From: Phoronis australis
Lineage: Eukaryota; Animalia; Phoronida
DNA length: 64,000 nt
NCBI GenBank assembly: GCA_002633005.1
Contig: NMRA01000117.1
Location: 62,001-126,000, forward strand
Reading direction: 5' to 3'
The translations under genes and the position numbers were made by a program. The notes beneath the pieces were generated by a model. That model made no database searches. It saw only the letters and a list, made by a program, of their open reading frames with translations, and had not been told where the DNA came from. Positions 1,605 through 60,712 of this stretch are shown here, piece after piece. Positions within the stretch are counted from its first letter, which is position 1, and each line of letters begins with the position of its first letter.

Positions 1605-1924
1605 ATGAGCGATTCTGACGCAAGTTATTCAACAGAATCTCGGGAGTCCAGTCCGGATAGGATTATTTCTAAGCCTGACGGCAAGCCATCAGATGAGCTT
1701 ACAACTGATATCCACAATGCAGTTAGCAGGGTTCTCAAAGGTTACGACTGGTCGCTGGTGCCCATGCCAACACGGGGACCAAACGGTGAAAAGAGAAAAC
1801 CGCACATCAAGAGACCCATGAATGCGTTCATGGTTTGGGCTCAAGCTGCAAGAAGAAAGTTAGCCGACCAGTATCCACACTTGCACAATGCTGAGCTCAG
1901 CAAAACGCTTGGAAAGTTATGGAG
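1605..1924 (+). CDS. SoxE: SoxE (Sox8/9/10 group) HMG-box transcription factor, coding exon 1: dimerisation domain and first half of HMG box
   Basis: ATG at 1605 (AAAATGA). Encodes [20 protein letters not shown] (SoxE dimerisation domain) and [43 protein letters not shown]. Ends AG|GTGAGT at 1924/1925, the conserved phase-2 HMG-box intron of SoxE genes. Confidence 0.97.
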
Positions 1925-4900
1925 GTGAGTTGTTCATGTACTGTACGTAGCAGTCCGACACTTGCAGCCAATAATTAAACCGCATAAATGCTAAGTAATT
2001 CCACCGTGCTCTTTTTTAGATTTTGAAAATCAACGTTCCTTTTTCGGGTAGTTTACAATCACTTTTACATTGGACGGTAATCAAGACGCCAACAGTCGTA
2101 GGATGAAATTCAGGGCAAGATCATTTGCATTATCAAAGCTCGAGAACTGCTATGGAACACAATTCTTCAATGTTTTTCAGCCAGCACGGAATTTAGTGAA
2201 TCACCTTGTTAAACTCGAGTGTCGACTTTGCCCTCTGACCAATTTTATAGACATGTGTCGTCTTGGACACTAAGTTTTTGATGGGAATTACTGTCATTTT
2301 ATTGGGGAGTTCATCGAAAAACCATTCGTCCTCAGGCAATTTACTCTGCAATCTATTTATATTTGACAAAGAGTTATATCCTTTTTCTAAAATAAGTCCA
2401 CTCACCCGTTAATAAGAAGGGTGTTATTACATCCCTAAGAATAGGGGAGATAACTTAGGAAAGTACATTAATTTTAGGTTTTATGCTTGAATTTCCAGAC
2501 GAGTTAGGTTTTGACAAGTAAATAAATAAAATATTCTTAAAAGTTTTCAAGTAATTTCTAATTACTGTTTCTTCATCACACAGCTTTTAGAGCTGTTTAT
2601 TTTAGATGGTTTTATAATGGTAATCATTAAAAGTAATAATCATTAAAAATAATAATCACGGTAAAGACCAAATGAAAATATGAAGCCATCCAACTAAGTA
2701 GGCCTATTTTCAAAAGCAATAGATTGGAACTCAAAACCCATCCTTTCGCTCTTCCTGTAGAGCAGTTTCCAATTTCAAAGGTACACGTTCTTTATAAATA
2801 TTGTTTACACAGACGGCGACCTGTCGTAGCCCAGGCACGTGCAATGGGCGTATTTCTTCTGGCGATTGAAGGTAGTGTTTAGACAGGTTTCACTTCCTCT
2901 ATACAAACGTCACGAAACGTGTAGCATCCAGGGTCGCAAAGATTCTGTCCGTAATACTTTGAAAAAGTTAAAACCTCTTTCAACTGGCAGGTAAAAGTGC
3001 AAACACTCCGGTATGTAACTCGGAATTTGAAGAAAACCTATCCTTCTGAACACAGCTGTTGGACAATTAGAACGAATCTGCAATTGTGGACGTTACGTGC
3101 TTGTTTTATCCCTTTCAATCATTTGACTTTTGTGTATTCATGAGGACCCCGTAATTAACGTTTTATGCAAATAGCAATTAACGGTTGTGTAGTGCGGTAA
3201 GCTTGATGTAACCCTACTAAAAGAATTAGAGATCACGCCGCACACGCGTATCTAACAATACATTCGGCAATCCATCAATGGTTTTATGACACTATTTGTG
3301 ACAGAACAACCGGTGATGCAAGCCCATAGTTCATTAGCTGGTATCCCAGCCTGTGGTCTGGGGTGCAAACACTAATAGGAAACCAGATGTAAGACCCAGT
3401 GGGCACGTGCGGAAAATTGGTATTACCATTAACACGAATTATGCGTATTTATCATATGACAAATAGCAGTGGGTAATTTTCCCTTTCGAGTCTCGTTGCA
3501 GTCAATACCCGTTTTACGCTTTCGAGTTTTTGTCAACACAAAACACTAGATATATGGAGAAAGTCTGTCAGAATACGTAACAGTTAGGATCGGTTTCACG
3601 CTGGGTGTCCGACAATGACCATTCGGCTACTGGATGCGTAAACACAAGGGTTGATGAAACGGGGATATACATGCATGTATTGGCATAAGTGGGCTTCATT
3701 TTCGTCAGTTGTTTATGAAGAGTTAAAAAATGCAGTTCACATTACGGGATATCGTGTTTTATACATCAAGATATTTATTTGTACAAAGTATTGCTACTAT
3801 ATTAAATTTAAACCAATCACGCCTAGGAAAACCAAGGAAAAACGTGTTGTTAGAAAAGTAACTACATTATTTCTGCTAGTTTAAATAAGATAAATGTTTG
3901 CAATTAAGGTTTGAGTAGAAGGCAATAAAGCAAGCTAATTAAATTTACAGCCATTTAATTTTGTGTACACTGAGTATGTATTGGTTCCACTCAGAGTCTG
4001 CAAGTGATAGTGCTGTCACATTCCTGGAGTTAATGGAATGAACTAAAATCACCAACTGTCAATTTTAGTTTGGAGACAAAATTATTTTGACCCAAAGTTA
4101 ATATTGATTTAATGAACAGCGTGGGACAAGGGTTTAATGATGGGTAGAGTTGAATTAATATGCCGTGTTAACAATGTGTTGTTGCGAAACCTACTAAGTT
4201 GTTAATAGGTGACTCAATATTTTTTGTGTTCGAAGCTGACGTTATTGGCCAAAACAAAGCAACGATAATTCAATTAATTCAACCACCTTGGCGATAGTCA
4301 CGCGTCCGGTTACAACGTCTCAGTGCGGTGGGTGTGGTTTTTTTCGTTAGCAGATTTTGGTGGTCAGGTATTTCCTTATCGTATCCAGTCGGTGATCCCT
4401 AATCAGTCAATGACAACCGAGTGACGTTTCGCTAAAGTGGAATAAACTACGTGACAAATGAAGTGAGATTTCATGGCCCACGAGGACGCTTTCCTTCGAA
4501 AACTGTGGTCCCCCTCCCCCTCTACCCTTTACTACTTCCCAGAGAATCGACAATGCTGCTTAAAATGTTTGCTCGAAAACAACCTAACATGTGTCTTGAA
4601 TAATTAGCAATTACTTTCTATTTAAACACAAATTAAAGCCATTCTTTCCAGAGATATTTCTTGACCTGAATCTTGTTGTTGCTGGCGGCACCTTTGATTT
4701 AACATGTGGTTACCGATCGGGTGAGAGCAGGGGTCGGCAAACGTTGTTCTGTATTGCGGAAAGCAGCACTCCCACGCGTTAGCATTGGAAATGCTGATTC
4801 ACTGACCCAACTTTCAGGAAGAAACTAAAATGACTGTTTCTACTACAAAACGCCCCAGCTATCGCATTTAATTCCATAAATCGCTTTTTGATAAAACAAT

Positions 4901-5480
4901 ACAGGATGTACCGATGTATTATTTTATCGGATTTCAATGTAATTTATTATGGTGAAGTTTTTTTAATCTCCAAATCGTGAATCAATCTGAAATGACTGGA
5001 GTTAATTACTTTACAAAAACACCGCCACCAACGTTGATGACATCCAAAAATTACCAACACGAGATCACGTATTATTGAGAATGAACATAGGTGGCGCTTT
5101 AAAACAACGAAACCTCTCGTTTATGATGAAGTTCGTAATAAAAAGGCAAAAATGCCAATTTAAATGACTGTGGTTTGATTGCGTAAAGCATTGCATTTGA
5201 GTTCACAAACCTTTAACGCGATTAAAAAACAAGAGATGGCTAGACCAATGGACTAATAATTGTTTGGCCATGGCTCATGTGTTCACCATATTCCTACTTA
5301 AAACCGGGACAATTTTGTTAAATAACAAAAACACGTGATAGAGATGGAAATCATAACTTTTTGGAGACATTAGGCAAGGGTGTGGTTGAAAAAGATTCCC
5401 ACGTTGTCTGTCAAAACAAAGGAGAGTTTCAGTATGATGTCTACTCAAAATTCACCAATATTATATCCGTGTGTTGGCAG

Positions 5481-5644
5481 GTTATTGAGTGAAGCCGAGA
5501 AAAGACCATTCGTGGATGAAGCAGAACGCTTGCGACTACAGCATAAGAAAGACTACCCAGAGTACAAGTACCAGCCAAGGCGACGAAAACCTCTCAAGGG
5601 GTCCAACAACAGCACGAGCGAAAACCAAGGACAATTGTCGCCAG
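5481..5644 (+). CDS. SoxE: SoxE coding exon 2: second half of HMG box
   Basis: Acceptor GGCAG|G at 5480/5481 completes the AG|G Arg codon. Encodes [36 protein letters not shown]. Donor CCAG|GTGAGT at 5644/5645 (phase 1). Confidence 0.96.
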
Positions 5645-5873
5645 GTGAGTTTGAGCCTTGATCGAACAAGTGTGATAAGATGATAACGACTACACTCGAG
5701 TTGTTCACCCAAGCCTACTTTATTTCCATAAATGCTCCTTATTTGTTTATTTTGTTTTTGGTCTCGCTTGGGTCATCTTTGGTAATTTCACCGAGCAAAC
5801 CAAAATCTTTGCCACAGCAAGCACGCTACGGTTAAAAGTAGCTCCAATACAATAAGCTTCATCGCTATTGTAG

Positions 5874-6020
5874 GTATGCTGTATAAGTCCATACAAGACG
5901 ACCACTCTCCCGTGTCGGACTGCATGATGGGAAGTCCTGGACATACGGCTCACGGTCCACCGACACCACCTACCACACCAAACCAGCAAGAAATAATGAT
6001 GAAAATGGCCAAGGCTGCTG
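5874..6020 (+). CDS. SoxE: SoxE coding exon 3 (GPPTPPTTP motif)
   Basis: Acceptor TTGTAG|GT at 5873/5874 (G+GT=Gly, in phase). Encodes MLYKSIQ...HGPPTPPTTP, the SoxE-specific motif. Donor CTG|GTAAGC at 6020/6021 (phase 1). Confidence 0.9.
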
Positions 6021-6268
6021 GTAAGCCGCAAATAGATCTTCCAAAATTTTGTTCACTAAAATTATCTTCTACGTAAGGACTGGCAATAACGACTACTGCG
6101 GAACTATTTTTCTACATGAAGACGGAATTTGTACCCGCACTTTAATAAGATCATCCATTCCAGTACCTCTGCATAGCTGTCGTTTTGATTTCACTTTAAG
6201 CCGTTGGTGTTACCTGAAGTTTACTATTTTCATTGGTTACACTACTAACGAAGTTGTTTTCATTTTAG

Positions 6269-6894
6269 GACATGGCATCGACTTCAGTCGAGTGGACATA
6301 GGTGACCTGAGCGCTGAGGTCAATTTGGACGCTATCGAGGCAGAAGAGTTCGACCAATACCTCCCGCCTAATAGACTTCCCTGTAACTATGGTCACCAGT
6401 CATCGACCGCAACCACTTGGATGAACACCTATCGTGCCTCGGTGTGCCAAGAAAACCGTTCCCATGGTTACCAAGTTTCACCCAGCGGTGGACCGCAGCC
6501 ACTTCAAGACCACCGCACATACTCCAACCTGACTGGTAGCCAGCTCTCGCCGTCGCATGGTCTTCCTGGAAACCGTAGTCATGGTTACACAACCCTGACA
6601 CCGAGGCAACACTCTCCATCATCCATTCCAAGCAATATGGCTACCAGTTACCATAGTGACTCTGAAAGCACATTGGGCCCACAGTGCGAAGTGAAGGTAG
6701 AGATGGTCCCGCCATCCCAATATCAACGAGACCCCAAGTACTACGAAATGACCCCAGTTGCGTACCAGGAATCTTACCCGGTTACTACAACCAACAGTTA
6801 TTATTCTCAGGACTATTACAACCCAGCAGTGTCGTCTTCCGCACCCTTATTACTGACTGCCAATGGGCAATGGGATCGCTACGGACGACCATGA
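6269..6894 (+). CDS. SoxE: SoxE coding exon 4 (K2/TAM region and C-terminal transactivation region, stop)
   Basis: Branch point TACTAAC at 6243-6249 and acceptor TTTTAG|GA at 6268/6269. Encodes IDFSRVDIGDLS...EFDQYLPP (SoxE K2/TAM motif) and a P/S/Q/Y-rich tail ending QWDRYGRP-TGA. Exon lengths 320+164+147+626=1257 nt = 418 aa plus stop. Confidence 0.93.
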
Positions 6895-7385
6895 ACAATA
6901 ACTTTGCGTAATCTACGTGTATTTAAAAGTGTGATTTTTATGTTTTAACGTATTGTATTTTGTAAACTATTTATGATCTCCAAACAGTGCACGTGTAAGG
7001 CAACGTTGAAAGTGACACTGAGGTAAACAAGCTGAATCCACCCATTGTGAACGAAGTTAGGGGGAATCTCTAAGCTACGGCCATGTTATCATTCCTTTTG
7101 AAGCAAGACTGGTGAATGGTTTGAATGCTGTGAGCGATAGTATTTTGAGGGAAATACTGTATTATTGTGTAAATACCAACTGTGCAGCATGATTAAAGGG
7201 AATTTATTAGTGTTTACTAATTATAGTTTTTGCATGAATTTCCGACCGTATTGTTATTACTTTTATTTTACCAACACTGGTTGCAAATTTTATTAGTATT
7301 TTTAGTATTTTATTAAGTTCTAAATTGTAGATGCTATTTATGTTAACGTATTATGAATAAAGGTGTAAAAATACTTATTTCGTGT
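6895..7385 (+). promoter_or_regulatory. SoxE 3' UTR with poly(A) signal AATAAA (7356-7361)
   Basis: AU-rich sequence after the stop. AATAAA at 7356-7361 is followed about 20 nt later by GT/T-rich CGTGTTTTG. Pumilio element TGTAAATA at 7168-7175, several ATTTA, bantam seed match at 6973-6980. Confidence 0.7.
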
Positions 7386-10300
7386 TTTGCATCAAACGAC
7401 AGCTGTTTAATTCCTATCAAAGATTACTGATACACCAACATGCTGCATTGTGCCACAGACATGTGAAGATAAGATGAAACTGTCTCTTTAACTAAATTTT
7501 GACAGTTTTCATTCGCTTTTCAAGAAATTAAGTATCACCGGCAGATTTAATGCTGCGTGTTTGTATACATCTGAAATGTAAATATTTAAAGACTTAACAA
7601 AACACACTTCCTGTGTTTAAAAACCCGTGGAAAATTGTCCATCGCGTCAAGACATCCGATATCATTGACAGGGGTTTAGTAGATCACACTTGAGCTCCCT
7701 ATGTATACAGTGATGAGCTAGTTTTACGGGAGGATGTTATATCTCCCAGCTATTTCTAGATTGTTAGTTCTCGGGTGGCTCACGCATTTTTTTACAACCT
7801 AATGGGCGCGGGACGAACAAAATTATGCTAAATATATACAAAATAGCCGCGAGAAAAGTGTGACACGATTTTACCCCATATCAAGTGAAAAACTACATAC
7901 CAGACTAAACGCACAAAACCTAACACTAGAAATGCATACATGCGCATACGAATATCGTTATTGCAGCTATGAGAGAGGTAGAAATGATACAGTCATTAAC
8001 TTATATACAATAAAACAAAACAAACAATGATATGTTAATACAAACCGGAGATCTAGAAAGGCAGGAAACAACAATTAAGTTGCTTAAAATAACGACCAAA
8101 CGACTACGGATGGTTGTACCCTATTGTTTCATTGGAGTTATTTACGTTATAAAATGAATGAATCTATGTATTGTGTCTAAGGAGAACCCAACCTCGATGA
8201 GGCTTACAATATTGTAGCAATTAAACGATAATTACTTGATAACAATATTTTGTGACGTTAAAAGAAATACTCCCTTTCGTAAATGAGTGAAATTTAGAAA
8301 AATGCTCATTTCAGCAGTGATGAAAAACTACTTCTAGCCTTTCTAATTCTGCGTCACAGAGGAGGGACGCTGTAGTCATCAGTGTTTTAGCCAAGTTCCC
8401 GTTTCTTGCTTACAGCGTCCATTTTACATGACAAAATAGAAAGTAAGCGCTCCATAAAAGTTCTATCAACAATAACAAATTCAATTCCGATTTTAGAGTG
8501 GGCAATAACTGTACCACTTCTTGTAAAATTCTTAAAATGAAATGAGCAATTGTCTAGAAGAATTTGTGTAAGACCCAAATGAATCGATAATAATAGTAAT
8601 AACACACAATTATATCCGGCCGTTGCTGGTTTGTGACGTTGACCAAATGTCTCTTCTAGACAGTGGTTCAATCGCTTCGAGAGTTCGCTAAAGCAACGGA
8701 CACAAATAAGTTTACATTCACAGACAACTAGTCCAGGAAACCAGATACCTCGGCCATGTGTCCCATACAATCTGTAATCAGGCTTATTTGAGTAGCTACA
8801 TCACCACCTGTGTCCCATTTCAAAACATTTTTTCTGGTCATATTTCAGTAATAGCCACTTTATATCTTGTGATTTACTGTAGCTTTTAGCTTCTTAACCA
8901 AAACAGCGCGAGTAATCCCATCTCATCAAATAAGCTGTATTTAATGACCGCCGATGGAAAATCGCTTTACTTTTCGGTTGTACGTTTTAACGGTGTGTTG
9001 AAAAGCGATGAACGCGGTGATGATCGGTGAAATGGAAATGAAGTCAATCTATGCGACCAGATTATGAGATGTCCGTTATCCTTGAAAACGCGTTCAACTT
9101 CATTTACAATTACTAGATTCAGATTTGAAAGCAATAATATACAGCTGCCAACTGTTCCAAGTGATAAACAACTTCTAAAACGGAACTAGCACAAAACGAA
9201 AACAGCAGCTTTAAAATTTTTCATTACGTACTTTCAATGGTTATGAACTAGAGATACACATACTTTGGGATCCGTGCGAGAGAAACAAGCGGTTGTGTGA
9301 AGAAGAGTTACATCACGAGTAAATGACAGTGACTGACTCACGCCATATCACTTCTTTAGTGTTGTCAAGTGTTTATAAACAGTGAAAGTTGCATGTTATC
9401 TTAGTGATCTCCAGTACCACGCCAAGAATTTAAGTTTTGTGCTGTTTTAGAATTTCACACTGCTTAAGTACTTTTAATTACGTAACATGTTCAACATGCC
9501 TGAATGGCTCATGGGAAAGCAGTATATTTAGTGTCTTGGGTGAGCAAAAGGTCATTACCACACCAATGACAAAACCTGAGACAAAAGTGTTGGTCTTTTC
9601 TATGAAGCAGGCACAAACATCATTTTTCGCTATGACAAAAAAAGTTCAAGCAAGGCCTGTCCACTAATTTTTCAGCATAGTATCAGTACCATTGCACACA
9701 TTAACATATTTCAGTGTATTTAGTTTCAATAATAGTATGTTACCATTTTGTGAATGGTTTCGTTTCAGGGTTCCTTATTCCCAGCCCCCCCCCTTTGTTT
9801 GTGAATAAATAAACCAATAAGTGAAACTCAGTATTTGTAGGATCGCAACTTGTGTTAAAATGAGGAAACCAAATGCAAAGCTGACCAAAACGAACAAAAT
9901 ATCTTCATTTGTCCATCTACCATTACAAATTCAAATGCAATTATATATAGCTATCAAACTTTCCATCTTCAGCAGTGATCAGGACAAACACAATTATTAA
10001 AATTTGTAACCTTTTCTGACCTAATCATGTTCACCCTTCTGTTGAACATACCAAGATAAGGCAGCCAAATTAATAGGTGTCAGAAATATGAACACATCAA
10101 CACATTAAACATTTCAACAGAATAATAAAAATGATGATTCACTTGTGACCCCCAAGATTACAGGTTGTTAACAAAGACATTTGGATAATAATCTTTACAG
10201 GCATACTCATAACTTTATCAAGAGGATGGTAGTTGACAGATAAGTAGACAATGAAGTGGATAATGTATTAGTGGTGCAAATCTTTTATCAAATAACTTTC

Positions 10301-10618
10301 ACTTAATGAACAAGTCCCACCACAAACAGGTTACATACAAGGGTGATATTTCACTCTCCCTTTGTTGCAAACATTCAAAAACACCCAAAGGCAAATTTAC
10401 ATTTCCATATGCACTAGACAAACTCGGACAGAAAAAAATATCTTGAATGATTCAGAGCTAGACTAAGTATTACAGTATACGACTAGTAAACTCGAAATTC
10501 TGCACATTTCATTATTCACAAAATAGCACTACTGTCTAAGTCTACCACTCTCAGACAACAACTATCCGAAGTTCTTCTCTCCCCTGGGATCAACTTGCTC
10601 TGGAGGTAATTTAAACAA

Positions 10619-10679
10619 AATCAGTTTTCACAATGATCTCAGAAATTCAACAAATCTGTAAAATCAATGTGAAAACCAG
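10619..10679 (-). ncRNA. bantam: bantam microRNA precursor (mature 3p arm 10619-10641; 5p/star arm ~10655-10679)
   Basis: The reverse complement of 10619-10641 is UGAGAUCAUUGUGAAAACUGAUU, the bantam mature sequence (seed GAGAUCA) in the form I recall for lophotrochozoans. The reverse complement of 10655-10679 is CUGGUUUUCACAUUGAUUUUACAGA, a bantam-star-like arm that pairs with it across a short loop containing UGU. Lower stem ACGAAA/UUUUGU. Confidence 0.96.
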
Positions 10680-11119
10680 TTTCGTAATTTTGTAGAAAAC
10701 CAACTGCACAGAGATTCTGAACCATAGATCTGTAAAATAAAAATGCATAACATTTAGAAACATACATTTTAAAGTATATTTATACACACCAGTTAGGCTA
10801 CTATCTGTAACACGAAAGTAACCGTTAAAAAACCTCTATCCAAACAAGTTGTCCCCACCATAAAAATGTTACGAAAAGAATGCCAAATCGCAATTTAATC
10901 GATTGCCAATTGGTTTAAAATAAGCAAATACCAGATCACAAAGATAAAATATCAAGCACGTTAAAAAGCTCGGGTGTCTATTCTAAAGCACATTTCCAAT
11001 GATGTTATCAATTAATAGAACATGACAATATAATAAGATGTAGTCATTATTAATTTGTGAATATTGCCCATGGGTCTCATAAAGAGCTTCCACCCAAGAC
11101 TGAAATTCTGACACTTGGT

Positions 11120-11335
11120 GTTCGTTTCATGGAAGTGACTTACTTAAGACCTAAGACAGAAATTTACACTCAGACATCACTACTGCTGAAAAATGGTTTA
11201 GCAACACAATTAGCAGTTATGCTATATTCTCACATACTTTGCACTTTTGTTTTAAGTGAGATTTAATATTTTTTCAGAGGAATATTGTACCGAATCAAAT
11301 TTCTGACTTAAGTCTTAGTCACTTGTAGTGAAAGA
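11120..11335. mobile_element. Degenerate MITE (long imperfect inverted repeats)
   Basis: AAGTGACT..TAAGACCTAAGACAGAAATTT..CTGAAAAA (~11132-11193) is mirrored by TTTTTCAG..AAATTTCTGACTTAAGTCTTAGTCACTT (~11270-11324). Confidence 0.55.
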
Positions 11336-13914: not shown

Positions 13915-14350
13915 TGCAAATGGCCAAATTCAGAACGGTATATCTCAGAAATGAGGATCAGGTTCACTTGAAACTTTCTACTACTAAACTTCATGCATTG
14001 CTCTCCAAAATGTTAGCAATTGTTTTTTACAATGTTGCATTTTTGTATGAGAGACTATCAAAACAGAGGAATTAAAAAAAATCAAACGTTGCATAAAACA
14101 AGAACAAAATGATCATTAAGTGTAACAGTGTTTATAAGATGTCATCTTGGAACAATTATTTTAAATAAAGTTATTATATCGATAATGGAGACTTGCTATC
14201 AGTGTACCTTATGTTTAACTAAATTGTACTAAAAAGACATGGTCAGGTGACCCAAATAGTGGCAGACTGATAAAACAAATTCAACAGGCTTTTTACTTTC
14301 AGAAAATATGTACCTCCCCCTATCTATAGTTTTGTACAATATTTGGCTTA
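13915..14350. repeat. Old interspersed repeat family A, copy 1
   Basis: Shares TGGC.AA.TTCAGAAC...TCAC.TGAAACTTTC...CTCCAAAA...TTTTG.ATGAGAG.CTATCAAAA with ~24460-24615 and with 24944-24970 + 26710-27100. AAATTC.ACAGGCTT...TTCAGAAA is shared with ~27018. Confidence 0.6.
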
Positions 14351-16501
14351 ATGCAGACTTGTCGATAAGGTCCTACATAACTTTAAACCATAGTCGCTGT
14401 CACGAAAACACCTTCAGAAGAGTTAGTTGTATTCCAAATATAACGTGGTGAAGAAAATTTCGTTCACTGATAGCCTCTGCTCTAACAGTTGGCCCTGTAA
14501 ACTTGAACGTTAGTCTGGTTTAAGTTGACACTGTAAGGGTATTAAGATACTGTTTTAGATACAGCAAGTTTCAATTACAAACAGTTGACATACCAGTCAG
14601 GGACACAAAAAACACTCTAGCATAAGCCAAAGCTGCTATGGTGGTTAGTCAGAGATCTGGAATTGTGAGATGTCAGGTCCAAAATATAAACATCCTCAGT
14701 TCTGTGACTTTCAACAACAGGTGTCAAGATTATTAAACAGCACAATTAACCTGCTGGTTAGGAATATCACTGTTTTACAGTCAAGGACAGGCCAGTTGTG
14801 GCAGAGTCAGTTAGGTGGTCCAGATTGACATAGCTGCTTTGATGTAGCATGTGTGTTCCATTAGGTGGTGATAGAGCCAACTGCAGTTAGATTACTAGCA
14901 ACACCCACTGGATCTACCAGGGAGACCTCCATCAGCTCACACTAATGAGTTATACAATATTAACCAATTTTGCAAACTACTCAGCATGAGAAAAGAAATG
15001 TATATAGATTGCTTGTGTGTTATGTGGGGTCAGCAAGTGCAAATAGACCAGGCAGTGCCTCTTGACACATCTGAAGGCACAAGGCAAGTTGTATAGTAAA
15101 ATAACTCTTTTAATTATCCACAGAATCATCAATATTTGTCAAGTTTTGCAATAAAATGTGCACGCAAATGTGACAGCATCTTCAAACACTACACTTGATG
15201 TGTGTCACAAGGTCAAATGTTAAATATTGACTTTTTTGCATTAGTAATACTTCATGTTCCATTATAAAAATATATCTAATTCAAAACTCCACAAGCAGGC
15301 TAACCAAAGGTGACCACTTAATTAGCATTTAATCAACAGTTAAGTGATCAACCAAATGAATAACCACATTATTTGTCAAGGTGAGGCTACACAGTGTCAC
15401 AAGAAATTAACCTAACAATATCATTTGCCATAATTTAATTAATTCAAACTTTGGTAAAGTACAGTTCTTCAGAAAGAGGACACCATAAGGAACCTCAAAA
15501 CCAAAAGTGCACACAATTTTTAAGTGCTTTTATTTTCTTTTTATAGCAACAATACTGTGGCCTATGGTTAAAATGTGAAACAGCGCAGAAGTTATAGCCA
15601 AATTACTTTTTCACCAAGTTTTGATGGAATACGTCTTATAACTGAAAATTTAAATCTTGAAAAAGTCAAGGTCTAAACATGTTAAGCAGCGTACTGATTA
15701 AAATAATTCCAGTGTCTAGCCTAAAGAGACAGAGTAATTAAGTTTGTGAAAACCTCACACACTATTCATGGAAAATATCTGGATGGTGCAGCATTATGTT
15801 ACAGGGCAAACTGTCACAAGCATCATGTGACCACCATGGTGCACCCAGACTTCTGTAGTCACTCCAGCAGGTCGCCTGCTATGTTCTGATGAGACATTTC
15901 TGGGCATGGCATGTGTTACAGACATGTACTCCAACTGTTGAGCCAGTAGCTGTGCTTATAACCTGCAACTAACCCCTTGACAGTCAATCAAGACATCAGC
16001 CAGTGTACAAGTCTTCTAACAAGACTGCCCCAGAATATAAGGATAGCACATTGAGGCTAACAGTGTAGAAATGTAAATTTCACATGCTTGCAATGAGTAC
16101 AAGAACATGTTAATTACTACCAATCAGTTATTTTCAACGAACGCTCACAAAAAATGGGGTCTACAACCGGTCGTTAACCATGTGACAAATATCTCTTACA
16201 AATATTCCCAAAATCTCCCACCTCGTACAACAGGTTGGAAAGTCTGGGACTAATTTACTTATTTTGATACAATGTTTATATTTCCTCCTCCTGGACTCAT
16301 CCTTACTAAAAATAGTAGCACATGATTTGCATATGTTTGTGCAGACACTACTCAATAGTGTGTCCAGTATATTTAGTATGTTGACCCAAAGGGTTGTCTA
16401 GTTCATGTCACCCAGGCCAATGGTCAGCTCACAAGTACACTCTTGGGTCATTTGAATGCAGCTTACTTTAAGAATGATAACTTAAAGAACATAAATTGTA
16501 T

Positions 16502-24454: not shown

Positions 24455-27100
24455 CTAATTTGGCTAACTTCAGAACATCATAACTCCGAAATGGCTCACC
24501 AGCTTCATATGAAACTTTCAGATACTATAATTTATAAACTGTTCTCCAAAATTCAGGAAGGATTACTTTTCAAAGTGACCTACTTTTGCATGAGAGGCTA
24601 TCAAAAAATAGGACTGGTTTTTTTATAAAATTTATGAAGTTGAATAAAATGAAAATGAAACAATAATTAAGAAAACTGGAATTTTAATTTTATGCCATTC
24701 ACTGGGTCATGGAAGCGAGTGTTTTCAGTAAAACTTAGCAAAAAAAGTTATAGTCTTAGCAAAACAACAGTAAGATGCCGCCTCCAAACACTGCTACAGA
24801 CTTTCAAGTTATCACTTCCCTTTTTGTTTGCCGACTTTTTAAAAATATCCTTTAAGTACTTTTTGGCTAGCCAGTCCTATAAAAACGAAACATTTAAATA
24901 AAATTCCAAACAGCACTGAGGACCTCGGAAGAATGTCCAAATCTGGCTCACTACGGAACATTACATCTCAAACAAGAGCAACGCGGAGCGTTGAAATGCG
25001 CCCACAAATGCATTGCGAATGGTGTGCTTTTAGGGTTGTTTATTTGTATCATAAAAATGGAAACTAGATGGTGCAAAAACAATCCATTCAAAAACAGAAA
25101 CATGCCATATTTCATAAAAATCTGTCAAAGAACTTCAGAGAAACAAAGGAAAACAGAATAAAATGAAACTGCCACTAGTGGGCACAGTGTCCGTTGGATC
25201 CGTCTGAAAGTGGTCGTCGTCTGTTGTTATCTTCATATTATTAAATTTAGTAAAGATCCTGCAGTGGGTTTAAGAGATACAACTATGGGCGCAAAACAAA
25301 ACTACCACTAGGAGGTGCCACAGTAATCAGTCACCATCATCAAAGGTGGTCTTCACACTGAGAACATATATGCCAATTTTCAAATGATTTGGTTGATACA
25401 GGGATGGACACCAAAAACAAGACTTGAAAACAGCAAAAGTGACCACTAGGTGGTGCAAAATATCTTGATTCCATCCCAAAACTGGCAGATAACATCATCA
25501 CACCAATAGATGTCTATGTTTAAAATTTTATGAAAATCTGTTGAGCACCTTTGAAGATACTGAGTTAAACATAAAAATCTAAAATTGACATTAGGGGGCA
25601 CAGCAGTAGTCAGATCTGTCTGAAAGTCGTCATCATCCGTAGTCAACATAACATAAATACACTTGCTAAATGAAGTAAAGATCCTGCGAACGGTTTAGGA
25701 GATACAGCCATAGGCGCAACAAAAACAAAACTGCCACTAGGAGGTGCCAGAGTAGTCGAAATCGTCGGAAAATCATCGTCAACCATCCTCTTTATAGTAA
25801 GCCCTACATGCCAATTTTCACATTCACCCTTTAAGCGATTTTCACATTCACCCTTTAAGCGGTTTGGTTGATATAAGGGTGGACGCAAAAAACAGATTCG
25901 AAAACAGTAAAAATGGTAACTAGGTGGCACAAACTACGTCGAATCCATCCGAAAACGAGAGGATAGTGGAATCTCACCAATAGGTGCCTACATATTAATT
26001 TCATGAAAATTCGTTAAGGACTTTTGAAGATACAAAGGTTAACGTAAAAAAATAAAATTGCCACTAGGGGGCACACTGGTAATCGGATCTGTCCAATAGT
26101 CGTCATCCTCCGTTGTTAACATCATATAAATACACTTAATAAATTTTGCAAAGATCCTGCGAACGGTTTAGGAGATACAGCCATAAGCGCAAAAAAACAA
26201 AGCTGCCACTTGAAGGCGCCACAGTAGTCAAAATCATCGTCAACCGTAATCATCATAGTAAGCACATACATGCCAATTTTCACAATCATCCTTTGAGCGG
26301 TTTGGTTGATAGAGGGTTGGACGCAATAAAAACAGACTCGAAAAAAGTAAAAATGGCCACTAGGTGGCGCAAACTACGTCAGATCTATCCGAAAACGGAA
26401 GAATAGCGTCATCTTGCTAATAGGTGCCTACATATCAAATTTCATGAAAATCCGTTCAGGACTTTTGAAGATACAAAGCGTAAAAAACTAAAATTGCCAC
26501 TAGGGGGCACACCGGTAGTCGAATCCGTCCGAAAGTAGGCTCATGCCGTCCCATTCATGAATGGAGCATATATGCCAAATTTCATGAACATATGTCAAAG
26601 GGTTTTGGAGATAGAGCAGCGGACGCCAGACGGACGCACCCAGACGGATGGACGGAGACGACGGCATAATGCTTCCACATATACTTGTAAATATGTGGGC
26701 ACATAAAAAGGCTGATCGGATTCACATGAAACTTTCAGATATTAAGCTTGGCACACTGATCTCCAAAACAACATTTTCAACATGTCCCGCTTTTGCACGA
26801 GGGTCTATCACAAATAGGACTTTTACAATTTTCAAGGAAAATCAGAAAAACAAAGTAACAGTGTTTTTGAGATTTCACTTAACATGTAGTTATACATCAA
26901 GCAAAATATGGCCATGTTATGGATACCAATGTTACTTTCCATTCAAATTTTACTTAGAGGATATGGCCAAGAGACCCAATTGATGCCAGATGGGTAAAAT
27001 GTCGAAAAATAAACACAAATTCCACAGGCTTGCTTGCTTCAGAAATATATACTTTTACTGAGTGTAAGTCCATAGTTTAATGGATATTTTGCATAATTCA
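24455..27100. repeat. Old repeat family A, two adjacent units; the second is split by a HINE insertion
   Basis: Unit at ~24460 reads TGGCTAACTTCAGAACATCATAACTCCGAAATGGCTCACCAGCTTCATATGAAACTTTCAGAT. The second unit is rebuilt by joining 24944-24970 to 26710 onward. Confidence 0.6.
24971..26709 (-). mobile_element. Helentron-associated non-autonomous element (HINE/DINE-1-like), copy 1, with internal tandem array
   Basis: Read on -: subTIR plus palindrome (CCACATAT..ATATGTGG, ~26675-26704), (GTCC/CCGT)-type microsatellite (~26620-26664), ~420-470-bp tandem units made of ~145-bp subunits, second subTIR ATGCGCCCACAAAT (24996-25009), 3' stem-loop CAACGC-GGA-GCGTTG (24979-24993). Inserted in an A-run. 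Confidence 0.85.
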
Positions 27101-41264: not shown

Positions 41265-43024
41265 AACAAGTGCAACGCAGAGCGTTGAAATGCGCCCACA
41301 AATGCATCGCAAGTGGTGTGCTTTTAGGGTTGTTTATATGTGTCATAAAAATGGCCACTATATAGCGCAAAAACATACAATCCATCCGAAAACACGAACA
41401 TGTCATTGTTTCTTTAGTAGAAAGCTATACACCAAATTTCACAGAAATCCGTCACGGAACTTTAGAGAAACAAAAGAAAAAGATGAAATTGCCAGTAGGG
41501 GGCACATTGTCCATTGGATCCGCCTGAAAGAGATCACTGCCTATTGTTAGCTTTTTTATAAATACACTTACTAATTAAATTTAATTTAATAAAGATCCTG
41601 CAGAGGGTTTAGGAGATACAGTTATGGGCGCAAAACAAAACAAAACTGCCACCAGGAGGTGCTACAGTAGTAAAAGTTGTCATCGTCAAGCATCCTCTTC
41701 ACACTGAGAACATATACGCCAATTTTCAAATCCACATTTAGAATGATTAGGTTGACAGAGGGTAGATGCCAAAAACAGATTTGAAAACAGCAAAAATGAC
41801 CGCTAGGTGGCACACAATACCTTGAATCCATCCGAAAATGGGAGGATAGCGTCATCTCACCAATAAATGTCCGTATTCAAAATCTTACGAAAATTTGTTG
41901 AGGACCTTTGAAGATACAGAAGTAAAGGTAAAACTAAAATTGCCACCAGCAGGCACACCAGTAGTCAGATCCACCTGAAAATCGTCATCTTCCGTTGTCA
42001 ACATCATATAAACACGCTTGTTAAATTTAGTAAAGATCCTGCGAACGGTTTAGGAAATACAGCCATGGATGCAAAAAATGAAACTGCCACTAGGAGGTGC
42101 CACAATAGTCAAAGTCTTCAGCCATCCACTTCATAGTAATAACATACATGCCAATTCATACGGTTTGGTTGATAGAAGGGTGGACTCAAAAACAGTAAAT
42201 ATGGCCATTAGGTGGTGCAAACGATGTAGAATCCATCTGAAAACCTAAAGATAGCGTCAACTCACTAACAGAAGCCTGTAAACCAAATTTTATGAAAATA
42301 CGTTGAGGGCCTTTGAAGATACTGGGGTAAACGTAAAAAAATAAAATTGCCACTAGGTGGCACACCAGTAGTCAGATCTGTCCGAAAGTCGTCATCGTTC
42401 GTTGCCATTACCATATAAATGCACTAACTAAATTTAGTAAAGATCCTGCAAACGGTGAAAGAGATATAGTCATAGGCGCAAAAAAGAACAAAACTGCCAC
42501 TAGGAGGCGCCACAGTAGTCAAAATCATCGGAAAATCATTGTCAAGTGTCCTCTTCATAGTAAGAACATATATGCCAATTTTCACAATCATGCTTAGAGT
42601 GGTTTGGGTGATAGAGGGATGGATGCTAAAAAACAGGCTCGAAAACAGTAAAAACGGCCACTAGGTGGTGCAAACTACGTTGAATCCACCAGAAAACGGG
42701 ATGACACCGTCGTCTCACTAATACATAGTTATATACCAAATTTTGCGAAAATGTGTTGAGGACCTTTGAAGATACAAAGGTATACAAAAAAATAAAATTG
42801 CCACTAGGGGGCACACCGGTAGTCGGATCCGTCCGAAAGTTCGCTCATGCCATCCCATCTATGAAAGGAACAAATGTACAATCTCATGAACATATGTCAA
42901 TCGGTTTTGGAGATAGAGCAGTGGACGCTGAACGTCAGACGCCGCCCGGACGCCACTCGGATGGACGGACAGACGGAGATGACGGCATAATGCGTCCACA
43001 TATAAATATGTGGGCACATAAAAA
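41265..43024 (-). mobile_element. HINE/Helentron-type non-autonomous element, copy 2 (same family as 24971-26709)
   Basis: Same ends as copy 1: AACAAG.GCAACGC.GAGCGTTGAAATGCGCCCACAAATGCAT ... GACGGCATAATGC.TCCACATAT..AAATATGTGGGCACATAAAAA. Same internal array (AAAGATCCTGC at ~41591, 42032, 42439). Confidence 0.85.
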
Positions 43025-59103: not shown

Positions 59104-59644
59104 TAGGGAATTACATCGCACTGGATGCCGCAGGCATTCATGGGCGATAGTACATCCTCACAAAAAGTTACTCATTTCAAAATACAGCAAATAAAATCAA
59201 ATGAACCATACATATAGGAACACGGAGTTATAATTAACACATACCACGACTTTGGATACAATTTAGTCAGCAAAACTTGAACAAATCGATGAAAATCTGT
59301 CGCGGTTTGCTCGAGTTTCTCTCAGTTACCGGGTGCCATTTTGAGGAAGTTACGTGAAATTACGCATGTTGACGAATAAAAAGTCCAAGGGACGCACATC
59401 TTACAAGTTTCACCCGATACCTTCTCATGCTATTTTACAAGTGTCGCGCGATAGCGTCACGCGCTTCGCTCAGTCNNNNNNNNNNNNNNNNNNNNNNNNN
59501 NNNNNNNNNNNNNNNNNNNNNNNNNNNNNNNNNNNNNNNNNNNNNNNNNNNNNNNNNNNNNNAAGTAACGAAATGAATACAGAAAGCGAATGGAAGTATT
59601 GTAGCCCCTATATGGCCAACCGAGGGGCTACGTGTTGCCTACTA
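59104..59644. mobile_element. Nested insertion with 9-bp TSD GATGGCCCC and TAG...CTA ends (spans assembly gap)
   Basis: GATGGCCCC at 59095-59103 and at 59645-59653. Insert begins TAGGGAATTAC and ends GTTGCCTACTA. Confidence 0.75.
59476..59562. other. Assembly gap (87 N)
   Basis: Run of N characters. Confidence 1.
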
Positions 59645-60712
59645 GATGGCCCCGCGTTGGTTTGAATGCGCTAAATCTCCCCTTACTCCCAGCTCTCCTA
59701 ATGTTGTTTATCCATTTTTCACGAAGTTCTTGGTTTGCAGGGAACACATAAAAACTCAGATTTTTATCTCTCTTGTTGTTTTTGAAGCAGCCTGGAACAC
59801 AACAAGTGTATCCGCCGTAAGTTTTCTTCGCGGTCATACCGCGTATTATGCTTGTTACTATGGCCGCTTTCGGAATCCTGACAACAGCACCCACAATGCA
59901 CCATATTAACCTAATTTCAATATGGCGTCGCTGCAAATCCGCTATTGCTCAGTACTTCCATCCTCTGATAGTAGGCAGTATCTGCTGTCATCTCAAGAAT
60001 TTTTTTAAAACCTTTGAAAACCAGTGTTTTTGCTCACGTTTTGGGAGTCACCATTGGATTTAGTTCTTAGCAAACAGAGTTACTAAGACACCAGAATAAA
60101 ATCACGGACCGAATGTAGTTCATTAATTAATCGTTTCCACAGAAAGATCACTGCTGCTAACTTGACTTATCAGAGTTCGAAGCTTTAAACTTTGGCGTCA
60201 TCTAATTATAGCTACATGAGACTTTTAACATGTTAATTGCATTGGCTCTTGTACCCTGAAATGCTTTTCTTTCTGGCAGTTTTCTTACTCAAGAAAAAAA
60301 GGATTTTGTGTCAAGATTCGACTCCATCACGTGCAGTCTAAACTCAATCCACCATTTAAAGTTCACCAACCCTAAAACTAGGAATTGAAAATGGTGTAAG
60401 TACATGTCACTTGAGACTTGAGCAGATAACGGAAACAGAATCACCCTACCACAGTAAGGAATAAAAGACCGATTCTGTAAGAGTAAAAGGTCCAGTTTGA
60501 TTTTCACTTTTAGCCAAATAACCTTTAATTTAGGACTCGGAAAAATGCACTTCTTGTCACACATGGGAATGCATTTTTCGTCAAGCATGGAAATGCATTT
60601 GGTTAATGGCATGATTAAGATTTTTTAGAAAAGAACTCTGAATTAGTTTGTCCGCATAGTGAAAATCGTCTCATTAACTTTGTAGACATTTGCTGTATAT
60701 TAACTTGTACAT

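Follow-up and report, generated by a model that had tools for sequence, protein, structure and literature searches.

The Hox-cluster microRNAs (miRNAs) miR-196 and miR-iab-4/iab-8 are of the same kind as miR-10, and outside the Hox cluster few pairs of neighboring miRNA and transcription factor genes are, to our knowledge, known across phyla. Convergent cis-natural antisense pairs form another known class, and in genomic regulatory blocks neighbors are long kept together around developmental transcription factor genes beside a gene-poor stretch. The nearest precedent for the arrangement described here is a conserved miRNA that neighbors a developmental transcription factor gene, exemplified by miR-10 within the Hox cluster (PMC3562263). 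For the bantam family itself, the nematode genes bantam/mir-81/mir-82 are described in the cited portion of one report as linked to T07D1.2 and its Brugia homologue (PMC3282659), and C. elegans is given as being without SoxE in the cited part of another (PMC2386450). The present analysis concerns the transcription factor gene SoxE and the bantam miRNA gene, which lie tail-to-tail in a stretch of 64,000 nucleotides (nt) from Phoronis australis (contig NMRA01000117.1 of GCA_002633005.1, positions 62,001-126,000, forward strand; hereafter the window, in whose own coordinates positions are given). The bantam-SoxE pair is a new conserved miRNA-transcription factor adjacency, and a miRNA-target module is not proven; it is classed as an adjacency and not as a module because the linkage recurs in distant lineages without conservation of the target site. 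No description of the link was found in a full-text literature search that left out subscription journals and miRNA databases, and the excerpt of PMC8703358 makes no mention of Sox.

As with the Hox miRNAs, for which targeting of the neighbor has been proposed, a deeply conserved miRNA here stands beside a developmental transcription factor gene across phyla. Unlike those miRNAs, bantam has a single SoxE gene as its partner and lies tail-to-tail or in tandem with it, not inside a cluster; moreover, the bantam-SoxE link does not hold in several lineages, and among those checked the target site shows no conservation. The nematode mir-81/82 locus is similar in joining a bantam-family miRNA to a conserved protein-coding neighbor, but the neighbor there is a non-Sox gene, and reports of the link are confined to nematodes. 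The long-kept neighbors beside a gene-poor stretch also recall a genomic regulatory block, from which the locus differs in that the bystander is a miRNA gene, itself a growth regulator, and in that no conserved non-coding element was detected. Finally, the 3' ends of copepod-like pairs, 60-276 nt apart, resemble cis-natural antisense pairs in that the transcripts may overlap, whereas in the window RNA depth is zero from 7.7 to 9.7 kb.

SoxE and bantam in the window

SoxE occupies four exons on the + strand (1605-6894) that make up one open frame of 418 amino acids (aa), with GT..AG introns (Table 1); this exon structure is based on frame and splice signals, RNA reads being too few to list splice joints. 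The features of the SoxE (Sox8/9/10) group are present, namely a Sox_N region before a SoxE-type HMG box, with both Sox_N and HMG_box in exon 1 above the Pfam cut-off, and grouping with named SoxE proteins in a tree. The latter is a quick tree, for which supports from the Shimodaira-Hasegawa-like approximate likelihood ratio test (SH-aLRT) are given; in it the window protein clusters with those of Lingula and Owenia (SH-aLRT 95), and Lingula SOX-9 is also its top named match. Judged by its SoxE, the source animal is likely a spiralian. No second Sox gene was found in the 64-kb window.

On the other strand, the bantam precursor is the sole Rfam match across the whole window; its score against RF00727 is above threshold and the bantam seed is on its 3' arm. 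The two genes are convergent, with 3.26 kb between the poly(A) signal of SoxE and the 3' end of mature bantam. The initial annotation had placed the end of SoxE at ~7380, a bantam hairpin on the - strand near 10619-10679 and a convergent spacing of ~3.3 kb between them, and this layout is confirmed, the end of SoxE being deduced from AATAAA at 7356.

Table 1. Coordinates of SoxE, bantam and associated features in the window
Feature	Positions	Strand	Evidence and remarks
SoxE exon 1	1605..1924	+	ATG, Sox_N dimerization region, start of HMG box; Pfam PF12444 E 2.6e-12, PF00505 E 1.3e-14; RNA reads
SoxE intron 1	1925..5480	+	3,556 nt, GT..AG; bins 2201-5200 with zero RNA depth in 4/4 runs
SoxE exon 2	5481..5644	+	Remainder of HMG box
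SoxE exon 3	5874..6020	+	PPTPPTTP motif; SoxE profile E 6.4e-8
SoxE exon 4, coding to TGA stop	6269..6894	+	SoxE profile E 1.4e-19
SoxE 3' untranslated region (UTR)	6895..7380	+	486 nt, 69% A+U; end deduced from the AATAAA at 7356; RNA depth in bins 6701-7700
Match to bantam nt 2-9 (predicted site)	6973..6980	+	ATGATCTC; 7mer-m8 at 6974-6980, t1 = C (6981); no 3' supplementary pairing
Stretch covered by two X5 contigs	9891..10744	.	Contig pieces at 9891-10578 and at 10589-10744; bin 10701-11200 likewise has depth
bantam precursor hairpin	10612..10693	-	Rfam RF00727, 86.5 bits vs gathering score 61, E 5.4e-17; fold z = -5.7
Mature bantam-3p arm (predicted)	10619..10641	-	Rfam alignment

Linkage in other animals

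Metagenome contigs were scanned with the mature bantam pattern, which gave 54 contigs in 34 sequence clusters, or 33 after the L012/L040 cluster was dropped, in which the mature arm is unpaired and L012 also has no Rfam match. The single match to the pattern in a prokaryote genome (L055) lies inside a bacterial open reading frame (ORF) with no miRNA-like hairpin and was likewise rejected, and viral contigs gave no match. Rfam was run in gathering mode on 18 contigs, with three bantam matches, and in E-value mode on 7 contigs; the others were accepted by exact mature match together with a folded hairpin.

A tblastn search placed SoxE HMG exons on 7 of the 54 bantam contigs, corresponding to 6 of the 33 clusters, and in these the first downstream neighbor of bantam is SoxE. 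Of the remaining clusters, four have another gene downstream, four have no recognized gene in 5-10 kb, and 19 have under 3 kb of downstream sequence. When only clusters with at least 5 kb on the relevant side are considered, SoxE is found downstream of bantam in 4/8 and upstream in 0/5, and in every linked case it is on the downstream side. In the window and in six other animal lineages read from DNA, bantam lies within 4 kb of SoxE; for a single-copy gene placed at random, the probability of lying within 10 kb is 1e-4 to 2e-5 in genomes of 0.2-1 Gb. No other gene in common with any contig was detected when the window was compared with the contigs by tblastx. The linkage of this miRNA and transcription factor gene across distant lineages, which the initial annotation had proposed as a check, was thus found in 6/33 clusters, four of them copepod-like and in the same orientation as the window, and in one more lineage known from proteins (P0128, below).

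The convergent order of the window recurs in four clusters, with gaps from SoxE stop to bantam of 272-276 nt (L003/L029), 262 nt (L022), 127 nt (L026) and 186 nt (L032); the L003/L029 cluster spans four separate contigs, L046 and L021 carrying the SoxE tail. These four clusters are judged copepod-like by their proteins, because the SoxE sequences of L022, L026, L029 and L032 cluster with that of Tigriopus (SH-aLRT 100) and Tigriopus is the sole named match of L026 SoxE. The other two clusters, L020 and L035, have a tandem order, in which the SoxE ATG follows bantam on the same strand after 2,624 and 2,107 nt, respectively. Their SoxE proteins pair together (SH-aLRT 100) and have best named matches of 64-85% in the HMG region only; the animal lineage is unplaced, and a profile search with the last exon returned two relatives that gave no lineage placement. 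All six SoxE-linked hairpins match the Rfam bantam clan (E 1.8e-9 to 9.5e-6), and both arms are paired when folded.

A further lineage was reached by starting from SoxE. Of the 8 proteins in the P0128 cluster, 6 continue past a TGA into an antisense translation of both bantam arms, which begins ~20 codons (~60 nt) past the likely stop and occurs in two frames, and a seventh protein starts just before the arms. The P0128 cluster, known from protein predictions alone, is read on this pattern as a further copepod-like SoxE-bantam lineage. The predictions P0128, P0233-P0237 and P0239 are copepod-like SoxE proteins in which TGA is read as Trp, and their C-terminal extensions are likely annotation artefacts.

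Some other features of these contigs may be recorded here. The bantam precursors at L026:1392-1514 and L032:1733-1837 have unusually long loops, their Rfam matches extending over 123 and 105 nt vs the 82 positions of the model. In L035 and L022, but not in the window or L020, an intron at the SoxE exon 1-2 junction directly follows the DWSL/DWTL motif of Sox_N. On contig L014 an ORF of 235 aa (positions 3-707, + strand) is convergent on bantam, ends 810 nt away and has motifs like those in the SoxE tails of copepods; it was left unassigned by BLAST, Pfam, the ESM Atlas and a profile of copepod tails, and was excluded from the count.

The bantam site in the SoxE 3' UTR

The window SoxE UTR contains a predicted canonical bantam site, a 7mer-m8 in the read-covered 3' region, which begins 79 nt past the stop in AU-rich sequence (Table 1). 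The site claimed by the initial annotation (7mer-m8 class at 6973-6980, C at t1, ~80 nt past the stop) is therefore confirmed as a match. Its duplex with bantam is paired at nt 2-9 only and, at -10.3 kcal/mol, ranks last in strength among the 12 occurrences of the word in the window, and its unpaired probability of 0.12 corresponds to the 76th percentile of region 6901-7200, above the local median. The chance of the 7-mer in a 486-nt UTR depends on the null that is used: it is 0.26% under dinucleotide shuffles of the UTR, a low value because the UTR is poor in TC, and 0.35% under a Markov model of the UTR, as compared with 2.1-2.3% under simpler nulls (window Markov, UTR mononucleotide) and 4.3% when 486-nt tiles of the window are counted. 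Over the whole window the 7-mer word occurs 12 times (bantam itself counted) vs 6.3 expected, and 12 was reached in 4/100 shuffles. At none of the eight start positions tried did the bantam 5' arm show a seed match in the window SoxE UTR. The window site is plausible yet unremarkable; in this species the 7-mer could cause mild repression wherever the two genes are co-expressed.

Transcription across the locus was followed in 500-base bins using three stranded raw-read runs with the same species label and the contigs of a fourth run (X5) that is RNA by guess only. SoxE exon bins are covered on one strand in 3/3 raw-read runs, where depth is low (0.07-2.7); reads are present in 2/3 runs for the bin with the SoxE stop and the seed site, bin 7201-7700 has a depth of 0.16 in 1/3 runs, and bins 7701-9700 have zero depth in 4/4 runs, at a SoxE depth that is low overall. 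Because of this depth pattern, the seed site is probably inside the SoxE mRNA, an mRNA end before 6973 being one of the outcomes that the initial annotation had named as a refutation, and the SoxE mRNA probably ends well short of bantam, with the UTR end resolved from RNA to a 500-base bin only. Overlapping 3' ends of SoxE and bantam were thus not found in the window's animal, at zero depth over 7701-9700 in 4/4 runs and low SoxE depth. The stretch covered by the two X5 contigs, which show neither strand nor end, likely belongs to the primary transcript of bantam, which would then end far from SoxE.

The six other SoxE tails, all of them from distant lineages, were examined from stop to bantam, or over 340-390 nt for the tandem pair. 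A 7mer-m8 is present in one of them (L022 at +194, behind AATAAA at +97 and +166) and a 7mer-A1 in none, and the chance of at least one 7mer-m8 over six tails is 11%. Conservation of the seed site, which had been named beforehand as the key test, was therefore not observed across these six distant tails. The possibility that the L022 7-mer is a decayed copy of the hairpin found no support, as 6% of shuffles align equally well. In the cited part of a prawn table, which carries little weight here, a 3,568-nt Sox9 transcript has no listed miRNA and bantam is listed for other genes (PMC5607309).

A different kind of contact between the two transcripts is suggested by the copepod-like lineages. In L026 the 3' end of bantam is 127 nt past the SoxE stop with no AATAAA or ATTAAA between them, and the next signals, at +719 and +995, are beyond the hairpin; AATAAA is found before the hairpin in three of the four copepod-like lineages with DNA. 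Because copepod gaps can be only 60-130 nt, the SoxE tail of some copepods may overlap bantam antisense and would then contain a perfect bantam complement. With such very short gaps, copepods offer a natural setting in which to test whether an mRNA overlaps a miRNA gene in antisense.

Origin and maintenance of the linkage

The explanation that we find somewhat probable is that bantam and SoxE are an inherited pair of early-protostome origin, held together by shared cis-regulation, to which the window seed site would be a lineage-specific extra. Because spiralian and ecdysozoan groups bracket the protostomes and share the tail-to-tail order, the pair may have had a single ancestral origin near the protostome base, followed by later losses. 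The constraint would be cis-regulatory, with enhancers of one gene located in or beyond the other, e.g. within the first SoxE intron or the 53 kb on the upstream side of bantam, and the seed site would be a local addition, likely lineage-specific, rather than the cause of the pairing. In keeping with this explanation, the two genes stay within 4 kb of each other with no other common neighbor and remain adjacent despite a change of orientation (L020, L035), and their adjacency is independent of the seed site, the 7-mer being absent from 5/6 other tails. The tandem order could be accounted for if a head-to-head SoxE pair lost one or the other copy, which gives either orientation; SoxE is described as a head-to-head pair in Hymenoptera in the cited part of one report (PMC2386450), and the two SoxE entries of Lingula give an identical length for their longest contig. 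Of the two suggestions made in the initial annotation, a regulatory landscape common to both genes gains support from the linkage, whereas buffering of SoxE by bantam through a conserved site gains none.

Several observations weigh against an inherited pair held by cis-regulation. The first downstream gene is a different one in four clusters, namely KTI12 (L023), COP9 subunit 3/PCI (L034, L038) and a CUB gene (L053); such clusters could represent broken links or second bantam copies. No recognized gene was found within 5-10 kb downstream in four others (L015, L009, L027, L051), where negatives near 5 kb are weak because the window's own nearest HMG exon is 5 kb from bantam, and L017 and L039, whose hairpins are copepod-like by eye, have no SoxE within 1.1-1.3 kb. 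The Pfam search behind these assignments covered 137 contig ORFs, mostly from the 182 on 18 contigs, with short contigs of several clusters left out. The positive cases come down to three independent lineages, of which one is unplaced, and all six SoxE-linked hairpins score below Rfam gathering thresholds. When the window was compared with the 54 contigs by blastn, the HMG exons and hairpin were the only matches, with no common non-coding element, at distances likely too great for such a comparison. In addition, the rarity of the site under the UTR's own dinucleotide make-up (0.26%) favors selection on the site itself. Fly bantam is on chromosome arm 3L. Fly Sox100B is located on 3R according to the excerpt cited (PMC6307133), so that the fly, the best-studied host of both genes, appears to be without the link, and in nematodes bantam/mir-81/82 is tied to another gene in the portion cited (PMC3282659). 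With respect to the orientation of the alternative neighbors to bantam, COP9 signalosome subunit 3 is convergent (in L034 and L038, which are related contigs), KTI12 is on the same strand, and the CUB-domain gene is convergent.

A linked miRNA-target module, in which bantam represses its neighbor SoxE and the linkage exists for that reason, is an alternative that we regard as doubtful. It draws on the window 7mer-m8, which lies in an expressed AU-rich UTR 79 nt past the stop, is fairly accessible and is expected in 0.26% of UTR shuffles, on the possible overlap of UTR and bantam in copepods, where L026 has a gap of 127 nt without AATAAA/ATTAAA before the hairpin and P0128 a gap of ~60 nt, and on the 7mer-m8 at +194 in L022. 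It is at odds with the lack of the 7-mer in 5/6 other tails, one in six being what chance would give (P 0.11), with the AATAAA that precedes the hairpin in 3/4 copepod-like lineages with DNA, with a tandem lineage that has neither overlap nor site, and with a window duplex that is seed-only, the weakest of 12 matches and matched by chance in 4.3% of window tiles. Moreover, a miRNA acts in trans, so that targeting by itself requires no linkage. A related proposal, to which we give somewhat less credence still, is that bantam originated in the earliest protostomes in a tail-to-tail position with SoxE and has served ever since as a built-in brake on it, by antisense overlap in some copepods and by the seed site in the window. 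Where the gap is 60-130 nt, the SoxE mRNA would run through the bantam gene and acquire a perfect, sliceable site, and with a wider gap a UTR 7-mer would have taken over. If true, a built-in brake would constitute a cross-phylum miRNA-transcription factor module outside Hox, in which a growth/anti-apoptosis miRNA is tied to a gonad/progenitor regulator.

The adjacency might instead be a neutral relic, bantam having arisen beside SoxE in an early protostome and the pair having gone unbroken in slowly rearranging or compact genomes, with no hold on it from either targeting or common control. Such a history would be compatible with another neighbor in at least 4/33 clusters, with the failure of blastn to find a common non-coding element between window and 54 contigs, with the switch of orientation in one lineage, and with short gaps, which would be small breakpoint targets. 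However, no other gene is common to the window and the contigs, yet this pair persists within 4 kb across early protostome splits and is still adjacent after an inversion. A relic is judged about as doubtful as the target module. Far less likely again is that linkage outside the window is artefactual (through assembly, false hairpins or Sox genes outside the E group) or had several independent origins. The supporting animal DNA comes from metagenome assemblies, and the pattern that retrieved it also matched three stretches without a proper hairpin (L012, L040, L055); but the linked contigs form six distinct sequence clusters, one of them present in four separate contigs, both hairpin arms pair, the Sox genes group with named SoxE proteins, and the P0128 cluster was reached from the SoxE side.

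The presence of the bantam-SoxE pair in spiralian and crustacean lineages suggests where bantam may have arisen, and its apparent loss in the fly may explain why the pairing was missed. The pair also offers a synteny anchor for finding and naming bantam genes and fast-evolving SoxE copies. Further, it makes testable the question of whether bantam growth control and SoxE-dependent gonad or progenitor programs draw on common enhancers or act on one another.

DNA upstream of bantam

Upstream of bantam, over 53 kb, no host gene was recognized. A scan of 22 out of 23 ORFs of at least 90 aa between 12 and 64 kb returned a THAP domain near 59.7 kb and no other domain; short exons would escape such a scan. 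The ORF concerned (59628-59948, - strand; PF05485, E 1.9e-9) is beside an 87-base run of N (59476-59562) and is likely a transposon piece. A 1.8-kb element that contains an internal repeat of ~450 bases is present twice, at 24971-26709 and 41265-43024; the copies are 75% alike and likely represent a dispersed non-coding repeat. Closer to bantam, short repeat-like stretches at 14075-14390 collect numerous RNA reads that match only in part, on both strands and in each of the 4 runs.

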